Shown here: one piece after another, positions 10,647 through 44,364 of the stretch | Layout of the letters: every line of letters begins with the position of its first letter | How positions within the stretch are numbered: position 1 is the stretch's first letter | Virus record (IMG/VR): IMGVR_UViG_3300032770_000003 | Location: 96,001 to 160,000 of that record | DNA length: 64,000 nucleotides | DNA from: a virus | Strand: one strand, 5' to 3' | Program-made: the position numbers and the translations under genes | The notes under the pieces: model-generated | Database searches by the model: none | Told to the model about the DNA's origin: nothing | Seen by the model: only the letters and a program-made list of their open reading frames with translations

Positions 10647-12338
10647 CTAGTGAGTTCCAGCGATTGCTGTGAAGATGGCGTCAGCCAGGGCCTGCGCCAC
10701 GGGATAGCTGTAGCCCCGCCGGGCCTGCAGATAGCCGAGAGCCTCTTGATACGAGATCTTCTCTGCCTTCTTGATGTGGTGACCGGGGAACGTCTGAATC
10801 TTGGCGCTGCCTTCGAGCGACTGAGGTCGGAGCACGCCACCCATGCCACCGGCGGTGAGTGCCTTCTCCTCTTCCTCGGTCTTCGTGGGCGCTGCCATGG
10901 ACTTCAGCGCGGGGCCACAGGTACAGCACCCACCCTTGCAGACGTCGTCCCAGGGATGCAGGCACCACTTCTGCTTGCCCAGTGACTTGACGATCTCGGC
11001 CCAGGTGTTGGTGTTTACAGGAGAGTTGTGTGCTACAATCCCATTCGCCTCATACCACCCCAACGACGTATCGAGATTGTAAACATGGCCAGACCAATCG
11101 AACCGTCGCGAGCTAGCGAGATCGCTGAAGCCTATCGCTTGGGAGAGCGTCCGGCCGCTATCGCCGAACGTTACGGAATCACTCGTGAGGGAGTCTGGCT
11201 CATCGCCAAAAGACTCGGCGTACGGCGAGATCGCTCTGAAGGGCAAAAGCTCCGCTGGCAAAACGCCATTCCCGCTGAGCGCAAGAAGTGGGAAACCGAA
11301 GGGGCCAAGCATCTGCGAAAGCAGCCCATTCCCGAAGAAGCTCGGCACAAGATCGCGCAGTTTCGGGAGGAACACCTTACGCTTGTCGGCCGCGGCGAGC
11401 GCGTCCTTGCCGAACTTCTCAAAGAACGCGGAATCCAATCGGTACTGCAGAAGGCCGTCGGTCGATACAATATCGACGTTGCCGCCGCATCCGTCGCCGT
11501 GGAAATCTTTTTCACCAACCGTACAAACCCTGTGAAGGGAACGCGTCCGGGAGGAAATGCGCGCAAGTTCAAATACCTGCTCGAAAGTGGGTGGCACATT
11601 CTGTGCATCATGGGTTCCAATCGTCGACGCAATCGACGACCCGGCAGTTTTCGTCCAGCCGACCAGATCACGGTTGAAACGGCCGATGCGGTAGCGGCCT
11701 TTATCAAGCTGACCAAGCGGTACCCAACCATGATCCGTGAATATCGGGTGATTCGGTGTTCCGGTGAGCTTCTCACCAGTAGCCAGTACGATCTCAACCA
11801 TCTGGCCGGTGTACCAACGTCGGCTGACCTTTTTTGACGCACCACAGACGCGAACGTCGCCAGGGAAACAGGCAGTAATCGCCACATCCTGCAGCCAGCA
11901 CTTGGCGATGGTATTCCCCTCTCGCCGAAGCACCTTGCCCTGGATCGAGAAACCAACCTTCCGATTGGACTCGTTGGCTGCGAGCGCGGTGATGTGGTCC
12001 CACCAGTACTCAGCGCGCTCCTTGCCCTTATACAAAAACCCCTTCAACCAGAGCCCAGCCGGGGTGATCCGGCATTCCGCGGGTTCGCCGACCTTGTGCT
12101 CAGGGCCCTCTTTGTGGTCGTCGTTGATGTAGCCGTACTTGAGGAAGTAGCCGTAGTCGATCCCGTTCTGACGGACCACTTCACCCTGAAGGTCACGGTC
12201 ATCTGTGGACGCGACCCCTTGGATCCAGCGCTTGCCGTCCTTACTCTCAGCCTTGGAGATCTTCTCCACCGGCATGAAGAAGTGGAAGGTAGAACCGGTG
12301 CCCAGCAAACGGTCTTCTATACCGTCCACTAAGCGCAT
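10647..12338 (-). CDS. prohead protease interrupted by an intein
   Basis: GVASTDDRDLQGE, INDDH, GFSIQG and VAITA|SPVN motifs; GGAGG RBS before ATG 12338. Confidence 0.88.
   Translation of the reverse strand: MRLVDGIEDRLLGTGSTFHFFMPVEKISKAESKDGKRWIQGVASTDDRDLQGEVVRQNGIDYGYFLKYGYINDDHKEGPEHKVGEPAECRITPAGLWLKGFLYKGKERAEYWWDHITALAANESNRKVGFSIQGKVLRREGNTIAKCWLQDVAITACFPGDVRVCGASKKVSRRWYTGQMVEIVLATGEKLTGTPNHPIFTDHGWVPLGQLDKGRYRIGRFNRDLVGWTKTAGSSIASTIGTHDAQNVPPTFEQVFELARISSRTRSLHRVCTVGEKDFHGDGCGGNVDIVSTDGLLQYRLDSAFFEKFGKDALAAADKRKVFLPKLRDLVPSFFGNGLLSQMLGPFGFPLLALSGNGVLPAELLPFRAISPYAESFGDEPDSLTSDSVTFGDSGRTLSQAIGFSDLASSRRFDWSGHVYNLDTSLGWYEANGIVAHNSPVNTNTWAEIVKSLGKQKWCLHPWDDVCKGGCCTCGPALKSMAAPTKTEEEEKALTAGGMGGVLRPQSLEGSAKIQTFPGHHIKKAEKISYQEALGYLQARRGYSYPVAQALADAIFTAIAGTH
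11025..11870 (-). mobile_element. intein (282 aa) in prohead protease, no sense-strand endonuclease
   Basis: CFPGD N-terminus, GTPNHP block B, GHVYNL...GIVAHN|S C-terminus. Confidence 0.9.
11085..11837 (+). CDS. HTH + Vsr/DUF559-like PD-(D/E)xK endonuclease encoded antisense inside the intein
   Basis: HTH (AAIAERYGITREGV); E..LAELLKERGI..Q..VGRYNIDVA..VAVE; LLESGWHIL; paralog at 39863. Confidence 0.8.
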   Translation: MARPIEPSRASEIAEAYRLGERPAAIAERYGITREGVWLIAKRLGVRRDRSEGQKLRWQNAIPAERKKWETEGAKHLRKQPIPEEARHKIAQFREEHLTLVGRGERVLAELLKERGIQSVLQKAVGRYNIDVAAASVAVEIFFTNRTNPVKGTRPGGNARKFKYLLESGWHILCIMGSNRRRNRRPGSFRPADQITVETADAVAAFIKLTKRYPTMIREYRVIRCSGELLTSSQYDLNHLAGVPTSADLF

Positions 12339-38328: not shown

Positions 38329-38736
38329 TTACCATTCTGCTTTGCGGGCGGTCTCTTCGAGCGCCTTCTGCAGCTCCTCTTCCTCTGAGAGTTTCTGCTG
38401 GTGGTCCTCCGGCGAGATCGACGATATCGCCGATGATCCAAGCAGTGACTGAACATCGAGAGCTGTCAAGACCGCACAGGGAAAGCTATTCGCTTCGATG
38501 CTGTAGCCTTTGTCGATCTTCTCCTGACGGAGCTTCTCATACGAGTTGAATGCTGACTCGAAGGTGTTGAATTTCAGAACCCTCGTCTGCAGAGAAGCAC
38601 TTCTCCGGCCCCACCCGATCCGAAGCTCCCAACCAGATGCGTGGGGATTCTTGGTAACGAACAGGGCGTAGTGCTTGTTGGACCTACCTGACACAAAGGT
38701 CAGGTAGGTCAACAACTCGTGGTGCGGTTGTGCCAT
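38329..38736 (-). CDS. WGR-domain protein
   Basis: SNKHY...IGWGR...KIDKGY. Confidence 0.7.
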   Translation of the reverse strand: MAQPHHELLTYLTFVSGRSNKHYALFVTKNPHASGWELRIGWGRRSASLQTRVLKFNTFESAFNSYEKLRQEKIDKGYSIEANSFPCAVLTALDVQSLLGSSAISSISPEDHQQKLSEEEELQKALEETARKAEW

Positions 38737-39437
38737 CAGAGAGCCCAGGCAGCGTTGACCCGCTTCAGGATCTCTTGACCGTTCGCCGAGATGAGTGCGT
38801 TTTCGACGTTGTCTTCCGCCTCGCGGATGATCTCCGCGATCTGCTTGGCCATCTCGCGCGCTTCCTCGCGGACCGTCTCCAGCGCCTTCCGCGCCTTCGG
38901 ATCCTGAAGCAGCTCCAGGGCCGGCTTCGTGGTCACGAGCATGTTCCGGACCTTCTTGACGTCGAATTCCTTCAGCGCGGTCTTGAGCGCCTCCGTGTTC
39001 TGATTCAGCGTCTCGCGAAGAGCCTCCACCCCGTCGCGGTTCGTCGGATCGACCGTGGTGCAGAGCACGCGGAACTTGATGTAGCAGTGCTTCGCGCCCG
39101 CGTTGAACTCGTCGACCATGCCTCGCGCTTCCTCGACGGCGGCGAGCAGCTGATCCTTGTTCGCCGCCGGACAGAGGTAGCCCAGCTCGGTGTAGAGGCA
39201 CTTCGACCGAATGCGAAACCGGGCGTTCGAGTACACCTGGTCTGCTTTCTTCGCCTCCTCCTTGTTCTTGAAGTGCCGCTGGCTCAGCCAGGTGGCATCT
39301 TCCGAACCGTCACGGTGCGTAACGACGTTTTCGTCCCGGCGGTAGTAGCTGACGCCGCGCTCGACGCTCAACTTCTCCGTCACCAGGATGCACGGGTTGA
39401 TTTTGAGATTGCTCTGTTTCCAAGTCACAGTTGCCAT
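38736..39437 (-). CDS. hypothetical protein
   Basis: GGAGG RBS downstream of a 20-bp motif copy. Confidence 0.65.
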   Translation of the reverse strand: MATVTWKQSNLKINPCILVTEKLSVERGVSYYRRDENVVTHRDGSEDATWLSQRHFKNKEEAKKADQVYSNARFRIRSKCLYTELGYLCPAANKDQLLAAVEEARGMVDEFNAGAKHCYIKFRVLCTTVDPTNRDGVEALRETLNQNTEALKTALKEFDVKKVRNMLVTTKPALELLQDPKARKALETVREEAREMAKQIAEIIREAEDNVENALISANGQEILKRVNAAWAL

Positions 39438-39481
39438 TTCGAACCTCCGGGGGAGAGGTCGATCCGCACAGAAGTTCAGTC

Positions 39482-40894
39482 TCAGGCTGAGACGATCTGG
39501 TGATCGAGCCACTCACGCACTGCACGCAGATCCTCATAGACCTGCGTTCGCGCCGATGGATTACGCGCTATGTAAGCTGGATGATACGATACCCGAGTAG
39601 GTCCGAACGCTGTGTTGTGCCAGATGCCCCGTAGGGATGACAGCGGTGCGGTACTGAGAGTAGGAGCCAAGAGCGCTGTGGTGGCGACTCGCCCGAGTGC
39701 CACGACAGTGAGCGGCCGCACCAACTCCAGCTGACGCTCAAAGTACGGACGGCACGCCGCCAGCTCCGCGGGTGCCGGCTGACGATTCCGGGGTGGCCTG
39801 CAGTTGGATACTAACATCCCATCTGCTATATACTGCCCGCTTCTGGTCTGCAAATTGTAAACATGACCACTAAACCACTTCCTTTCGATCTTCAGGATCT
39901 TAGCCAGCGCTACTTGCGTGGCGCTGGATTGGAACCTTTGTCCCGGGAAGTTCATATTGGGCAAGCTACGCTCAAGAAGTTGTTCCTGAAAGCCGGTGTC
40001 GCGGTACGAGACCGCTCCGCCGCTATGAAGACCCGGCTGCGCCAGATGACACAAGAGCAACGAAAGGAACTCACTGAAGCTGCGCACGCAGCTTGTCACG
40101 GCCGTGTACGCCCTCTCGAAGAATCTCAGCGAATTGCCGAAGCGCGTGCTCGCCGCTTTCAGGAAACAAAAAAGGTGGTCGGATCCTTCGAAGATCTCTT
40201 GGTCAGTTGGATCAGACAGCGCGGGATTACTGTGACCCCGCAACAGCCTGTAAGGGGTTACAACCTCGATATTGGCATGTCCCCCGTCGCCGTGGAAGTT
40301 CACGTGGCTGTCAACCATCCATTTGCGGATGCCGACATCCGACAGCGTACGAAAAAGTTGATCGAACTTGGTTGGAGCGTGCTCTATGTCTGGATCACCA
40401 AAGCCCACCCTCTTCAGCACAGGGTAGTGGATGAGATCATCGCCTTCCAACAGGCGCGAAAGAGGAAGCCGCCCTCTGCTGGAAAATACCGGGTGGTTCG
40501 GGGTTCCGGAGAGGTCACCCTTCTCCGTATGGACCTTGAGTAACGGCCCCTCATACCATCGTCGATAGATCTTCTCGATCCCTGAAGCACACACCACAGT
40601 AGCTCCAGGAAAACACATCACTGGGTTAAGGATGTAGACCTGTTCCCGGGTGTAGCCCATCCAGGCGATGAACTCGTCGAGAATCGCACCCGCCCGGCCC
40701 ACGAACGGAAGGCCCGACAGATCCTCGTTCTGTCCAGGCGCCTCACCAACGAACGCGACTGGCGGGCGAGCGACATTCCCAGTGCCGAATACGACCTTGG
40801 TCCGCCCGCCCGCCAGTGGACACTTCGTGCAAGTCGAAGCCTCAGACCGGAGCGCGACCAACGCATCGATCTGCGCCGGTGTGCCCGGTTCCAT
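39482..40894 (-). CDS. family-4 uracil-DNA glycosylase interrupted by an intein
   Basis: CTKCPL, VGEAPG, FVGRAG, CRPP, YHPAY. Confidence 0.9.
   Translation of the reverse strand: MEPGTPAQIDALVALRSEASTCTKCPLAGGRTKVVFGTGNVARPPVAFVGEAPGQNEDLSGLPFVGRAGAILDEFIAWMGYTREQVYILNPVMCFPGATVVCASGIEKIYRRWYEGPLLKVHTEKGDLSGTPNHPVFSSRGRLPLSRLLEGDDLIHYPVLKRVGFGDPDIEHAPTKFDQLFRTLSDVGIRKWMVDSHVNFHGDGGHANIEVVTPYRLLRGHSNPALSDPTDQEIFEGSDHLFCFLKAASTRFGNSLRFFERAYTAVTSCVRSFSEFLSLLLCHLAQPGLHSGGAVSYRDTGFQEQLLERSLPNMNFPGQRFQSSATQVALAKILKIERKWFSGHVYNLQTRSGQYIADGMLVSNCRPPRNRQPAPAELAACRPYFERQLELVRPLTVVALGRVATTALLAPTLSTAPLSSLRGIWHNTAFGPTRVSYHPAYIARNPSARTQVYEDLRAVREWLDHQIVSA
39803..40615 (-). mobile_element. intein (271 aa) in UDG, no sense-strand endonuclease
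   Basis: CFPGA start, GTPNHP, GHVYNL...GMLVSN|C end. Confidence 0.9.
39863..40543 (+). CDS. HTH + Vsr/DUF559-like PD-(D/E)xK endonuclease encoded antisense inside the intein
   Basis: RDRS; E.LL..WIRQRGI...Q.PVRGYNLDIG..PVAVE; LIELGWSVL; YRVVRGSGE; paralog of 11085. Confidence 0.8.
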   Translation: MTTKPLPFDLQDLSQRYLRGAGLEPLSREVHIGQATLKKLFLKAGVAVRDRSAAMKTRLRQMTQEQRKELTEAAHAACHGRVRPLEESQRIAEARARRFQETKKVVGSFEDLLVSWIRQRGITVTPQQPVRGYNLDIGMSPVAVEVHVAVNHPFADADIRQRTKKLIELGWSVLYVWITKAHPLQHRVVDEIIAFQQARKRKPPSAGKYRVVRGSGEVTLLRMDLE

Positions 40895-41399: not shown

Positions 41400-43508
41400 C
41401 TACCCTTTCTTGTGCCTGAGGCACTGGTCTATCTGATTCAGACCTTGACGAGGTAATTCGTCAAGCTTTTTCACTACCACAGTGTTCGAATATATGCCAG
41501 TGACTGCGTCGGTCTCGATTCCGATCACTACGAGTTCAACGAGCTTTTCTACCGCCCTGGCACAATCCGTAGCGTAGTTGACATGCGCTGCGTGGTCCTC
41601 ATCAAACCTCGGGAATCTCTGTCGACTATCGTCCACATCCCACACGGGCGCAACCGGCACCGGCTCCCCGTCGTTGAAGACGAAGAGGAGCTTGCGTTTC
41701 TCAGGCCGAGAGAGGAGCATCCGAGCGCCAAGCTTGACGGTCTCCCCATCGTAGGTGTTCGCCTTGAGGTTCTTAGGCATCTGCAGGAAGCGCGGCCCGG
41801 CCGCATACCAGGAATCGCCGAAGGACTTGTACTCCCCCAGCCAGAGATCCCCCCAGCGCTGATAGGTGGCCTGGACCTCGGGAGTCGTCGGCAGCTTGCG
41901 CCGGAACGCCACTTCGGGCTGAGAGGTTGACCAGCCGTAGCACGCGAAGGGAATCTTGAGCTGGTTGAACAGCTCGCCGAAGATGACGGCCGTCTGTGCG
42001 GCCAACAGGATCTTGCTCCCGTCCATCGACCCGGAGTGATCCACCAGCAGCAGTGCACAGGTATCGAACGCCTCGCCTGCGACCTGTGACCGAAACACGT
42101 CCTTGCCGGTGCCGTTCACGACCTTGTACAGTCGCCGGCCGTTGAGCTTCCCGCGGAACTTGCCTTCCTCCCAGCGGCTCTGGGTGCGCGCCATGAGCGC
42201 CCGCGTGAGCTTGAGCTTCATCGGGGCGACCATCGCGTTCGCCTGGTTCATGAAGCGGACGAACTCCGTGCGATCGCCCTCCTTGATCTTCTCGATGGTG
42301 TCACCCTCCGTCGTGAAGATCTGGTAAGCGTGGCTACCCTTGCGCGCCTCTTCGACCGCTTTCTGGAGCAGCTCACCACGATCCGGAGCTTGTTTTTGCT
42401 CCGCACGCACCTCTTCCTCAGAGGGATCGAAGTTTGGTGCTGGCGCTGGGGCGGGGGCCTGTGACGGGGGCGCCTGCTCTTCTTCCTGGGACTCTTCCTC
42501 GCCACCACTTCCCTCTTTCGCGCCTTCGTCTTCCTCGCCCTGCTCGGATCCTGTGGCCGCACCCGCGGGCGGAGAGTCGTCTTCCGACTCATCCTCCTGT
42601 TCCGCGTCCCCCCCGTCGGCCTCTCCATCACCCTGTTCAGAGTCGTCCTCTGATCCCTGCGGCGGGGCCGTCTCCGTCTCTTCCGTCTCCTCAGGATCAG
42701 AATCCTCAGACTGCGACTGTTGCGGTTGGGGCTGCGGTTGCTCCGGCTGCTCCGGCTGCTCGAACATCGCCTGTTCTTGCGGCGACGGGGGCGGCGGGGG
42801 CGGCTGGTTCGACTGCTGTTGCCGTGGCTGCTGCTGCGGCTGTTGCGGCTGTTGCTGAGGGGGCGGCGGCGGGGGCGGGGGTGGCGTCGTGTCCTTCAGC
42901 CGTTCGAGAAGGATCTCAGCAAGCTCCCGCACCTCACGGGTGCTCCGAGCTTCGAACCGCGCTCGGCGGAAGAGGTCTTCTCCGTCCCGCTGAAAGCGCG
43001 CGAGGATCTCAGGCTCGACCACCGTCTGCAGAAACCAGTGATCGTAGTTGAATCCCGTGGTCGCGTACGCGAGCCCGGTGTAGAGGAATTTCCCGAGTGC
43101 CGTGCGTGTCGCCCAGGCTTGCGCCGGATTCGCCGCGACCTTGCGCAGATCCCACTCTGCGGCAAAATCGAAGTTGGATTGCGCTCCGGGGTAGATGTCG
43201 ATCCACCTCTGCTCGATCCGCGGATCCTCCAGCGCGTTCAGCGCGAGGAAGAGCTTGGGCTTGCGCGCCAGCTCCTCCAGCATGTCGAAGTCGCTGTGGA
43301 CGCAATGAGACGCTTCGTGGTCCAGGTAACCCTGTGTCGCGCGCAGCAGCTCGTCGCTGGCATCGTCCGGGAGCAGCGGCAGATAGATCGTCTTGCCGTT
43401 GGTGCGAGGTTGTGCGTGCGTGAAGATGACCTTGAGCTTCCACTGCTCCACCAGGATGCGCGCCAGGCGTTCCAGCGATGACTCGACGATTCGAAGCTGC
43501 TGCGTCAT
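41400..43508 (-). CDS. CobT-like vWA domain protein
   Basis: DHEASH N-domain, acidic/Pro linker, LVDHSGSM MIDAS, NDGEP. Confidence 0.85.
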   Translation of the reverse strand: MTQQLRIVESSLERLARILVEQWKLKVIFTHAQPRTNGKTIYLPLLPDDASDELLRATQGYLDHEASHCVHSDFDMLEELARKPKLFLALNALEDPRIEQRWIDIYPGAQSNFDFAAEWDLRKVAANPAQAWATRTALGKFLYTGLAYATTGFNYDHWFLQTVVEPEILARFQRDGEDLFRRARFEARSTREVRELAEILLERLKDTTPPPPPPPPPQQQPQQPQQQPRQQQSNQPPPPPPSPQEQAMFEQPEQPEQPQPQPQQSQSEDSDPEETEETETAPPQGSEDDSEQGDGEADGGDAEQEDESEDDSPPAGAATGSEQGEEDEGAKEGSGGEEESQEEEQAPPSQAPAPAPAPNFDPSEEEVRAEQKQAPDRGELLQKAVEEARKGSHAYQIFTTEGDTIEKIKEGDRTEFVRFMNQANAMVAPMKLKLTRALMARTQSRWEEGKFRGKLNGRRLYKVVNGTGKDVFRSQVAGEAFDTCALLLVDHSGSMDGSKILLAAQTAVIFGELFNQLKIPFACYGWSTSQPEVAFRRKLPTTPEVQATYQRWGDLWLGEYKSFGDSWYAAGPRFLQMPKNLKANTYDGETVKLGARMLLSRPEKRKLLFVFNDGEPVPVAPVWDVDDSRQRFPRFDEDHAAHVNYATDCARAVEKLVELVVIGIETDAVTGIYSNTVVVKKLDELPRQGLNQIDQCLRHKKG

Positions 43509-43542
43509 TGTCCCCTCGACAGGAGGTCGATCCGCACAGAAG

Positions 43543-44364
43543 TCAAAATCGCCAGTGCGCGCGTATAGCCTTGGCCAGCTCGTGAGCTGCAAGCGAAGTG
43601 CGCACTGTGACACGGTAACTACAGGTCGCGTACTTCGACGCCACCTTCGCCGGTGTCGGAGTTGGAGGTTCGAGCTGGTGCAGATCCGCCTGCATGTAGC
43701 GAAACGTACCGAGTGCCGCTGAGATCTCAGTCAGCCGGTCTATCAGCTCGGGTACGATGCCAACGAAAGCGTATTTACCGGTGTCAAGCCAGAATCGAAC
43801 GATCACGAGTCCGTCACGCATCACACTGCAGTAGCTCGCAGTCAGAGCGAGCTGATACTGCCCGCGGTGCGCATACTGCGTTGCAAAATCACGCGCCGAC
43901 CACATCAGCGGCAGGACGGGCAGCTCCCCTAGCGTCCGCCGGAATTCAGCCAGGAACGAGTCGACGGCGCGACCCATAGGCACATACTCGCGCCTCGCGT
44001 ATTTATCGGTACCGGCCCAGCGGCTCTTTTTGGTGGCGGGCTTCTTTCCGTGCTTCGCGGGCGGGGACGATGGACGCGGCGGGGGCGGCAGCGGATCTTG
44101 TTTCAAGGGGACTACGAGCTGGGGACCGCTGGCCACAGCTACCGCCTCAGTGCGAAGCTTCCAGGCGCGTTCGCAGAAGCGCGCGAGACCACAGCTCGGT
44201 GCTTCGCCACAGGGCCCTTCGCCTTCGACCACGAAGAGACCAAAGCAATCAGTCTGATCAACCGTCGCCGTCTCCTCAGGACGCATCGAGCGCTTGATTA
44301 GCTTGACCACCGGGACTAGCCACGGGTCACGGGCCCATTCAACCTGCGGAAGCTCGTTGGACAT
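43543..44364 (-). CDS. hypothetical protein
   Basis: 273 aa; GAGG RBS. Confidence 0.6.
   Translation of the reverse strand: MSNELPQVEWARDPWLVPVVKLIKRSMRPEETATVDQTDCFGLFVVEGEGPCGEAPSCGLARFCERAWKLRTEAVAVASGPQLVVPLKQDPLPPPPRPSSPPAKHGKKPATKKSRWAGTDKYARREYVPMGRAVDSFLAEFRRTLGELPVLPLMWSARDFATQYAHRGQYQLALTASYCSVMRDGLVIVRFWLDTGKYAFVGIVPELIDRLTEISAALGTFRYMQADLHQLEPPTPTPAKVASKYATCSYRVTVRTSLAAHELAKAIRAHWRF

Follow-up and report, generated by a model that had tools for sequence, protein, structure and literature searches.

In this study, we describe an intein in the family-4 uracil-DNA glycosylase (UDG) gene of a large uncultured wetland phage, together with a nuclease gene that lies within this intein on the opposite strand. 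The window analyzed is a 64,000-nucleotide stretch (positions 96,001 to 160,000) of the 171-kb IMG/VR virus record IMGVR_UViG_3300032770_000003. We consider it probable (roughly 0.77) that the element is a mobile two-strand intein unit combining a spliced UDG precursor with an antisense homing endonuclease. The reading draws on the anatomy of the element, both predicted folds, homology, frame-specific purifying selection in relatives, the openness of both frames throughout the family and nearest relatives that have no intein. In the cycle that we infer, the UDG precursor would be translated straight through the 271-amino-acid (aa) intein on the minus strand. The Hint lobes (approximately residues 1-66 and 233-271) would then excise the intein and join ...NPVM to CRPP..., restoring the family-4 UDG, and the ~108 sense residues between the lobes would be only a stop-free disordered tether. 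From the same triplets, the plus strand would encode a separate 226-aa protein with a helix-turn-helix (HTH) module and a Vsr-like PD-(D/E)XK core, most likely a homing endonuclease. This enzyme would cut intein-less UDG alleles at NPVM/CRPP (the slash marks the insertion point), after which repair would copy the element in. Its start codon would lie opposite the His codon of block F, and a likely -10 box falls in synonymous positions of block G codons.

The host gene is a family-4 UDG as judged from its sequence, with motif A, motif B and the four conserved cysteines in place. The Pfam UDG match to the precursor (98 bits) is divided into two separate stretches, and a weak Pfam match to an intein splicing domain is found in the same open reading frame (ORF). 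The N-extein matches 1ui0, a family-4 UDG from Thermus thermophilus, over residues 4-82 (E 4e-18, phmmer) and a second match to 1ui0 has an E of 3e-11. Alignment of the C-extein starts at Cys84 in 1ui0 and at Cys86 in 4zbx, the exteins join without a gap, and their GEAPG, HPAY, CTKC and CRPP...AAC motifs align to conserved family-4 positions. Since the exteins take up 1ui0 as residues 4-82 and then 84 onward, the intein insertion is exact and lies directly before the conserved Cys of CRPP. The coordinates and layout that an earlier note on this DNA had assigned to the ORF, the intein and the +1 Cys of CRPP (Table 1) proved to be correct. The same note took this Cys for a cluster ligand and reasoned that splicing would be essential for activity on that account. 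In solved family-4 UDGs a conserved Cys does occupy the aligned position, but the reasoning does not hold, as Cys-to-Ser changes in two family-4 UDGs lose only ~40% of activity (PMC5295032). Splicing would be needed because 271 residues interrupt the UDG fold rather than because of the cluster ligand.

The predicted splicing nucleophiles are Cys1 of CFPG, which is found in 44/44 relatives, and the +1 Cys of CRPP. Block B TPNH (intein residues 38-41) is present in 42/44 relatives and the C-terminal Asn271 is in place. The penultimate residue is Ser270 instead of the usual, though non-obligatory, His. This had been singled out as unusual, and while the Ser is there it is not special, since 18 of the 44 family members also have no His at that position; Ser before the terminal Asn is common to the window UDG intein and its sister element L007. 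An AlphaFold2 (AF2) model of the sense frame, built on a 43-sequence alignment, has confident Hint lobes. Compared with the Mtu RecA mini-intein the model gives Z 12.6 and a root-mean-square deviation (rmsd) of 1.5 A over 105 residues, and with Mtu RecA, NpuDnaB, gp41-1 and other inteins the range is Z 11-12.6 and rmsd 1.5-1.9 A over 100-106 residues. Across residues 125-232 pLDDT (predicted local distance difference test) scores fall below 50, and sense identity to relatives is 0.12-0.25. An in-frame endonuclease domain was considered and rejected because the sense center is disordered and poorly conserved. Residues 80-120 (40252-40375, minus strand), opposite the nuclease catalytic core, are modeled as a helix and a beta-hairpin with pLDDT ~80-90 and include the invariant FHGD. 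This confident stretch could belong to the Hint domain as an additional element, or it could be an artefact brought about by conservation that the other strand imposes; a real sense-frame structure here was rejected, as codon changes show no sense constraint past approximately residue 60.

The antisense ORF lies wholly within the intein, its codons in exact register with the sense codons (first sense positions face third antisense positions, and second face second), with intein residue r opposite nuclease residue 252-r. From only 19 aligned sequences, AF2 predicts its fold with a pLDDT of 89. The top four Foldseek matches are 3r3p_B and 3r3p_A (I-Bth0305I) and 1cw0 and 1vsr (Vsr), all with probability 1.00 and E 3-5e-3, and a DUF559-like protein is also among the best fold matches in the Protein Data Bank (PDB). 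A sequence profile run against PDB chains returned only weak HTH matches and Vsr at E 0.33, and the fold search was more informative. All 14 family-invariant residues are present in the window UDG nuclease, E110, D136 and E145 among them, and the E110-D136 spacing of 26 is that of E170/D196 in I-Bth0305I. No family-wide His was found: only the ten closest sequences keep H147, Asn predominates at position 152, and the residue that is invariant is E145. On its predicted fold, the antisense protein is best described as Vsr-like and not as a proven EDxHD member. An exhaustive HMMER search returned 1,617 cluster representatives at E<=1e-3 and 1,064 at E<=1e-10, most of them aligned nearly full length, and these nucleases are candidate new site-specific enzymes.

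Selection on the two frames was assessed in relatives. A scan of viral contigs with the single nuclease protein gave no match, and the 60 loci used here (L001 included) were gathered from metagenome and viral contigs by nuclease homology with an alignment of closer relatives. In six close relative pairs (73%-97% nucleotide identity), we tallied the codon changes that are silent in just one of the two frames. In the Hint ends outside the overlap, 56 changes were sense-synonymous and 6 nuclease-synonymous (p 3e-11), while across the HTH, linker and core the numbers were 48 and 205 (p 3e-24). The bias switches between the frames near intein residues 60 and 240. Where block B and N4 face the nuclease tail, changes are fewest and the bias is mixed (19 sense to 13 nuclease). 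In a sense-guided alignment of the window UDG element with its five nearest relatives, the center has an antisense-frame identity of 0.31-0.69 and a sense-frame identity of 0.12-0.44, and the ends have the reverse pattern with sense identity above antisense. The center is thus not better explained by the sense frame, the outcome that the earlier note had named as damaging to its proposal. Both frames are open in all 43 non-redundant related loci, versus 7.1 expected from their own codon usage. These comparisons of aligned sequences indicate that the antisense nuclease frame is under purifying selection in relatives, and the amino-acid conservation of the window copy agrees. The family-level tests thereby provide quantitative support for one stretch of DNA that is selected in both directions.

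As the nuclease would be a separate polypeptide made from the other strand, it requires transcription and translation signals of its own. In the 33 loci where the block F His could be located, the position opposite is ATG or GTG. A -10-like hexamer lies in the last 20 intein codons at 22/33 of these loci, often as TGnTAYAAT at -51, and a Shine-Dalgarno (SD)-like motif at -12/-13 is found at 29/33. When synonymous codons were resampled with the usage of each locus, 8.5 +/- 2.0 and 12.8 +/- 2.7 loci, respectively, were expected. It appears that the nuclease start codon, the SD-like motif and the -10-like box are created in this family by synonymous codons of intein blocks F and G. This indicates that expression signals of one gene can be placed in synonymous sites of the catalytic motifs of another. 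The -10-like box of the UDG copy may act as a promoter element, as the match to consensus suggests.

The same architecture had been noticed in an unrelated gene 28 kb away, and this was borne out: a second intein, in the same codon register, interrupts a head maturation protease gene ~28 kb from the UDG copy. These two are the only copies of the element in the 171-kb record. All of the intein and antisense motifs that had been listed as common to both copies were found, and the two antisense proteins share 31% identity over 190 aa (E 3e-16). The nuclease of the protease copy has no match to Pfam PF18741, and no PHROGs family was matched by either window nuclease. In the nuclease tree, elements at the UDG site form a clade (support 99/98) in which the window UDG copy is sister to L007, and the protease copy is a long branch apart from this clade. 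The proposal of a family that occupies different target sites is upheld, and the two window copies belong to different site-specific lineages. A recent intragenomic duplication was rejected, as the copies are placed apart in the tree and are only 31% identical.

The nuclease is nested antisense in a long ORF at 60/60 loci. Host genes of the family include stand-alone UDGs, UDG-PolA fusions, MuF-type head proteins (junction N/CRC), terminase and others. In L009, L013, L021 and L045 the UDG domain that carries the intein forms the N-terminal portion of a fusion with a family A DNA polymerase (~1,000-1,150 aa), with the intein at the same site (N.. before the insertion point and C(R/H)PP after it). 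Relatives were also found in 125 deposited phage genomes, where the overlying genes carry MuF, head morphogenesis or protease annotations. In L007 (2001-2678), the closest relative of the UDG element, codon 97 of the nuclease is an in-frame stop, the only one there, and the UDG-intein frame (529 aa) is open. A nonsense codon in the nuclease with the sense frame open is what the homing cycle predicts, and L007 looks like a decaying endonuclease within a still-spliceable intein, to go by the reading frames. One locus, L002 (1-2948), has a 982-aa minus-strand frame with two tandem inteins, each with a different antisense nuclease ORF. One of these ORFs encodes a 421-aa protein that is related to the window nuclease and has three HTH repeats; the other (410 aa) has repeated CxxC zinc-ribbon-like units and an MTES_1575-like C-terminus.

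Intein-less UDG alleles, which the earlier note had suggested looking for, were found in the seven nearest UDG relatives, which are 179-202 aa long with 69%-82% identity on the N-extein. Alleles without the intein read VM/CRPP, and one of them (L066), on a contig syntenic with the window, reads ...ILNTVM/CRPPGN. The heptamer GTCTACA (40592-40598) is found 18-24 nucleotides (nt) upstream of where the intein is inserted; in the L066 allele the reverse complement, TGTAGAC, comes directly after this point. Pieced together from the window and L066 alleles, the two make a 7-bp inverted repeat, GTCTACA-N17-TGTAGAC, around the homing site that may be a pseudo-palindromic target.

Several observations weigh against a functional homing endonuclease in the window. 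TTA, CTA and TCA together make up 1.06% of window codons, which gives a probability of 0.09 that 227 antisense codons are free of them. The Pfam PF18741 (REase_MTES_1575) match of the nuclease (25.1 bits, E 1.8e-5) is under the gathering cut-off of 38.2, and its Foldseek E-values are only ~3e-3. The His general base of Vsr/EDxHD enzymes is not conserved family-wide in the nuclease alignment and the chemistry may differ. The selection tests concern relatives and not the window copy, whose closest relative has only 57% nucleotide identity. In the UDG copy TATACT is at -34, a 5/6 match at a less common position. The GGAGG/GAGG/AAGG motif 12-13 nt before the start, present in 29/33 relatives, is missing from both window nucleases; both nuclease genes read ATTGTAAACATG (39803-39862 and 11025-11084).

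The alternative that survives best, although we regard it as unlikely, is that the architecture is real and the nuclease is no longer expressed or active here, i.e., a fixed, vertically inherited intein with an unbroken dead passenger gene. The missing SD-like motif in both copies and the nonsense codon already present in the sister element are in its favor, and in a GC-rich genome such as this one an antisense frame can remain open for a long time without selection. Nevertheless, the ORF is intact with its full set of family-invariant residues, the ATG and -10-like box are kept, and intein-less nearest relatives fit recent mobility better than old fixation. Less probable still is that the antisense protein is real and expressed in another role, as a repressor, a maturase-like intein helper or a nuclease against competing phages. 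The HTH domain alone could be a regulator and the canonical catalytic His is not conserved, but the family occurs only nested in inteins, its lineages follow insertion sites, and its presence is sporadic against intein-less close relatives. The acidic residues E110, D136 and E145 do not vary, and the structure that fits best is that of a proven homing endonuclease.

Chance openness needs separate consideration. Antisense open runs of >=250 codons occur in 12/22 long ORFs of the window, and the ease with which this genome gives rise to long shadow ORFs is illustrated locally at 38329-39512, where three mutually overlapping ORFs of 257-290 aa on both strands lie over the gene downstream of UDG (phrog_11021). 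Antisense KYRVVRGSGE is a codon-for-codon shadow of sense LSGTPNHPVF (block B), and PVAVEV is the codon shadow of NFHGDG. With openness within chance and these two motifs mere shadows, the case for a real gene must rest on other evidence; the earlier note, which argued from the shared motifs against a shadow ORF, came to a conclusion on the antisense gene that stands on this other evidence, while two of the motifs it cited are intein-block shadows. A GC-driven shadow ORF, where the sense strand alone codes, the antisense frame is open by chance and conservation mirrors the sense frame, can appeal to the 9% figure, the frequent long shadow ORFs and the exact motif shadows, but is largely refuted by the stronger antisense conservation of the center, the 205:48 synonymous bias toward the nuclease frame, the confident antisense fold opposite a disordered sense center and expression signals enriched above synonymous expectation.

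The two-strand reading can be taken a step further. Judging from the family, the chances are about even that this is an old, co-adapted bidirectional unit that exists in the nested form only, with signals in synonymous block F/G positions and ~35 doubly constrained codons, and that it is widespread over hosts and sites and largely unannotated. The contrasting view is that a free-standing nuclease gene invaded an intein in a rare accident.

The architecture as such is not new: full inteins with anti-sense VSR-like homing endonucleases have already been described in actinobacteriophages (Gosselin, Arsenault and Gogarten, bioRxiv 10.1101/2025.01.02.630785, version of Oct 2025), in a preprint that also cites older anti-sense LAGLIDADG cases. 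In those inteins, as here, the sense frame is open across a separate opposite-strand Vsr-like nuclease ORF and the in-frame center has no recognizable structure. The link to 3R3P was made by HHpred there and by Foldseek here, and the Gordonia MuF-type minor capsid inteins of that study are relatives of the window nuclease too. The hosts differ (Pol III alpha, minor capsid, TerL and ThyX there; UDG and protease here). By their account the second ORF is typically outside the splicing domain, whereas ours starts at the His codon of block F and ends just upstream of block B, and the layout they call "extremely rare" compares with >1,600 cluster representatives of the window nuclease family. Text searches of that preprint turned up no mention of a UDG or protease host, of an ORF reaching into blocks B/F or of an embedded promoter, SD motif or start codon. 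While the concept is already in the preprint, UDG is a new host gene for this layout. The layout thereby reaches three new settings, namely family-4 UDGs (with UDG-PolA fusions among them), a phage that is not an actinophage and a genome that carries two independent lineages.

Other known systems share parts of this arrangement. As in I-Bth0305I, the EDxHD / Vsr-like enzymes and the 'fractured genes' (Taylor et al., 2011, PMC3239194; Dassa et al., 2009, PMC2677866), an N-terminal HTH-type DNA-binding part precedes a C-terminal Vsr-like nuclease with a Glu-Asp spacing of 26, and there is an association with inteins in phage genes. However, those nucleases are intron-borne or free-standing and on the same strand, with the intein split in two genes, whereas here the intein is contiguous and the gene antisense. 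From the composite motif of I-Bth0305I (E170, D196, N208, H213, D222), the EDxHD His and the second Asp have no family-wide counterpart in the nuclease alignment, and conserved E145 sits where DUF559/MTES_1575 proteins carry Glu. Canonical bifunctional inteins such as PI-SceI and PI-PfuI (LAGLIDADG or HNH) likewise have a nuclease between the N and C Hint lobes and presumably the same homing cycle. In our element, by contrast, the nuclease would be a separate opposite-strand polypeptide, and the excised intein would keep only a disordered tether. In the cyanobacterial dnaX intein, an out-of-frame LAGLIDADG endonuclease has been studied by frame-specific selection analysis (Phillips, DeSimone and Gogarten, bioRxiv 10.64898/2026.09.14.751524; Gorbalenya 1998, as far as cited there). 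There too an overlapping second frame codes for the endonuclease and purifying selection favors the endonuclease frame in the overlap, but that frame is, as described there, +2, the nuclease family is another and the host cellular, whereas here it is antisense in register and in a phage. Because gene callers and phage annotation rules miss such nuclease genes, as with the two in the window and their lack of a PHROG match, such inteins are likely misfiled as decaying or mini-inteins.

Table 1. Coordinates within the window of the two intein elements and their parts.
Feature	Position	Strand	Details
Family-4 UDG precursor gene, intein included	39482-40894	-	470 aa; Pfam UDG E 5e-28; exteins match 1ui0 and 4zbx
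N-extein	40616-40894	-	93 aa; CxxC pair, motif A GEAPG, end ...YILNPVM; phmmer vs 1ui0
Class-1 intein (precursor aa 94-364)	39803-40615	-	271 aa; CFPG...LVSN, Cys1, block B TPNH, block F GHVYNL, terminal Ser-Asn
C-extein	39482-39802	-	106 aa; begins with +1 Cys of CRPPRNR, motif B HPAY inside; aligned to 1ui0 and 4zbx
Sense-frame linker (intein residues 125-232)	39920-40243	-	Open, predicted disordered (AF2)
Predicted antisense nuclease gene	39863-40543	+	226 aa; N-terminal HTH, helical linker, Vsr-like PD-(D/E)XK core
Putative nuclease start codon ATG	39863-39865	+	Reverse complement of CAT His codon of block F (GHVYNL); ATG or GTG at this position in 34 related loci
Candidate -10 region TGcTATATA / TATACT	39824-39834	+	In block G Tyr-Ile-Ala codons, ~30 nt upstream of ATG; consensus scan
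Predicted three-helix HTH DNA-binding module (nuclease aa 10-43)	39890-39991	+	AF2 helices 10-18, 23-30, 34-43; pLDDT 94
Predicted nuclease catalytic core (aa 105-180)	40175-40402	+	Family-invariant E110, D136, E145; alpha-beta-beta-beta-alpha-beta topology
Doubly constrained overlap, intein residues 25-60 (block B, N4) vs nuclease aa 192-226 and stop	40436-40543	.	Lowest substitution rate
Other intein, in head maturation protease gene	11025-11870	-	282 aa; N-extein vs phrog_1028 E 2.5e-45
Predicted antisense nuclease gene of protease copy	11085-11837	+	250 aa from ATG opposite block F His codon
Candidate extended -10 TGcTACAAT of protease copy	11031-11039	+	Position -51; consensus match

With 8 kb surrounding the gene as the blastn query, no phage record matched, and the phage thus has no sequenced close relative there. 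In the window, 41400-43613 encodes a 737-aa CobT/VWA-like protein with a ~150-residue Pro/Gln/Glu-rich low-complexity insert, and this gene is syntenic with a 624-aa CobT-like gene adjoining the intein-less UDG on L066.

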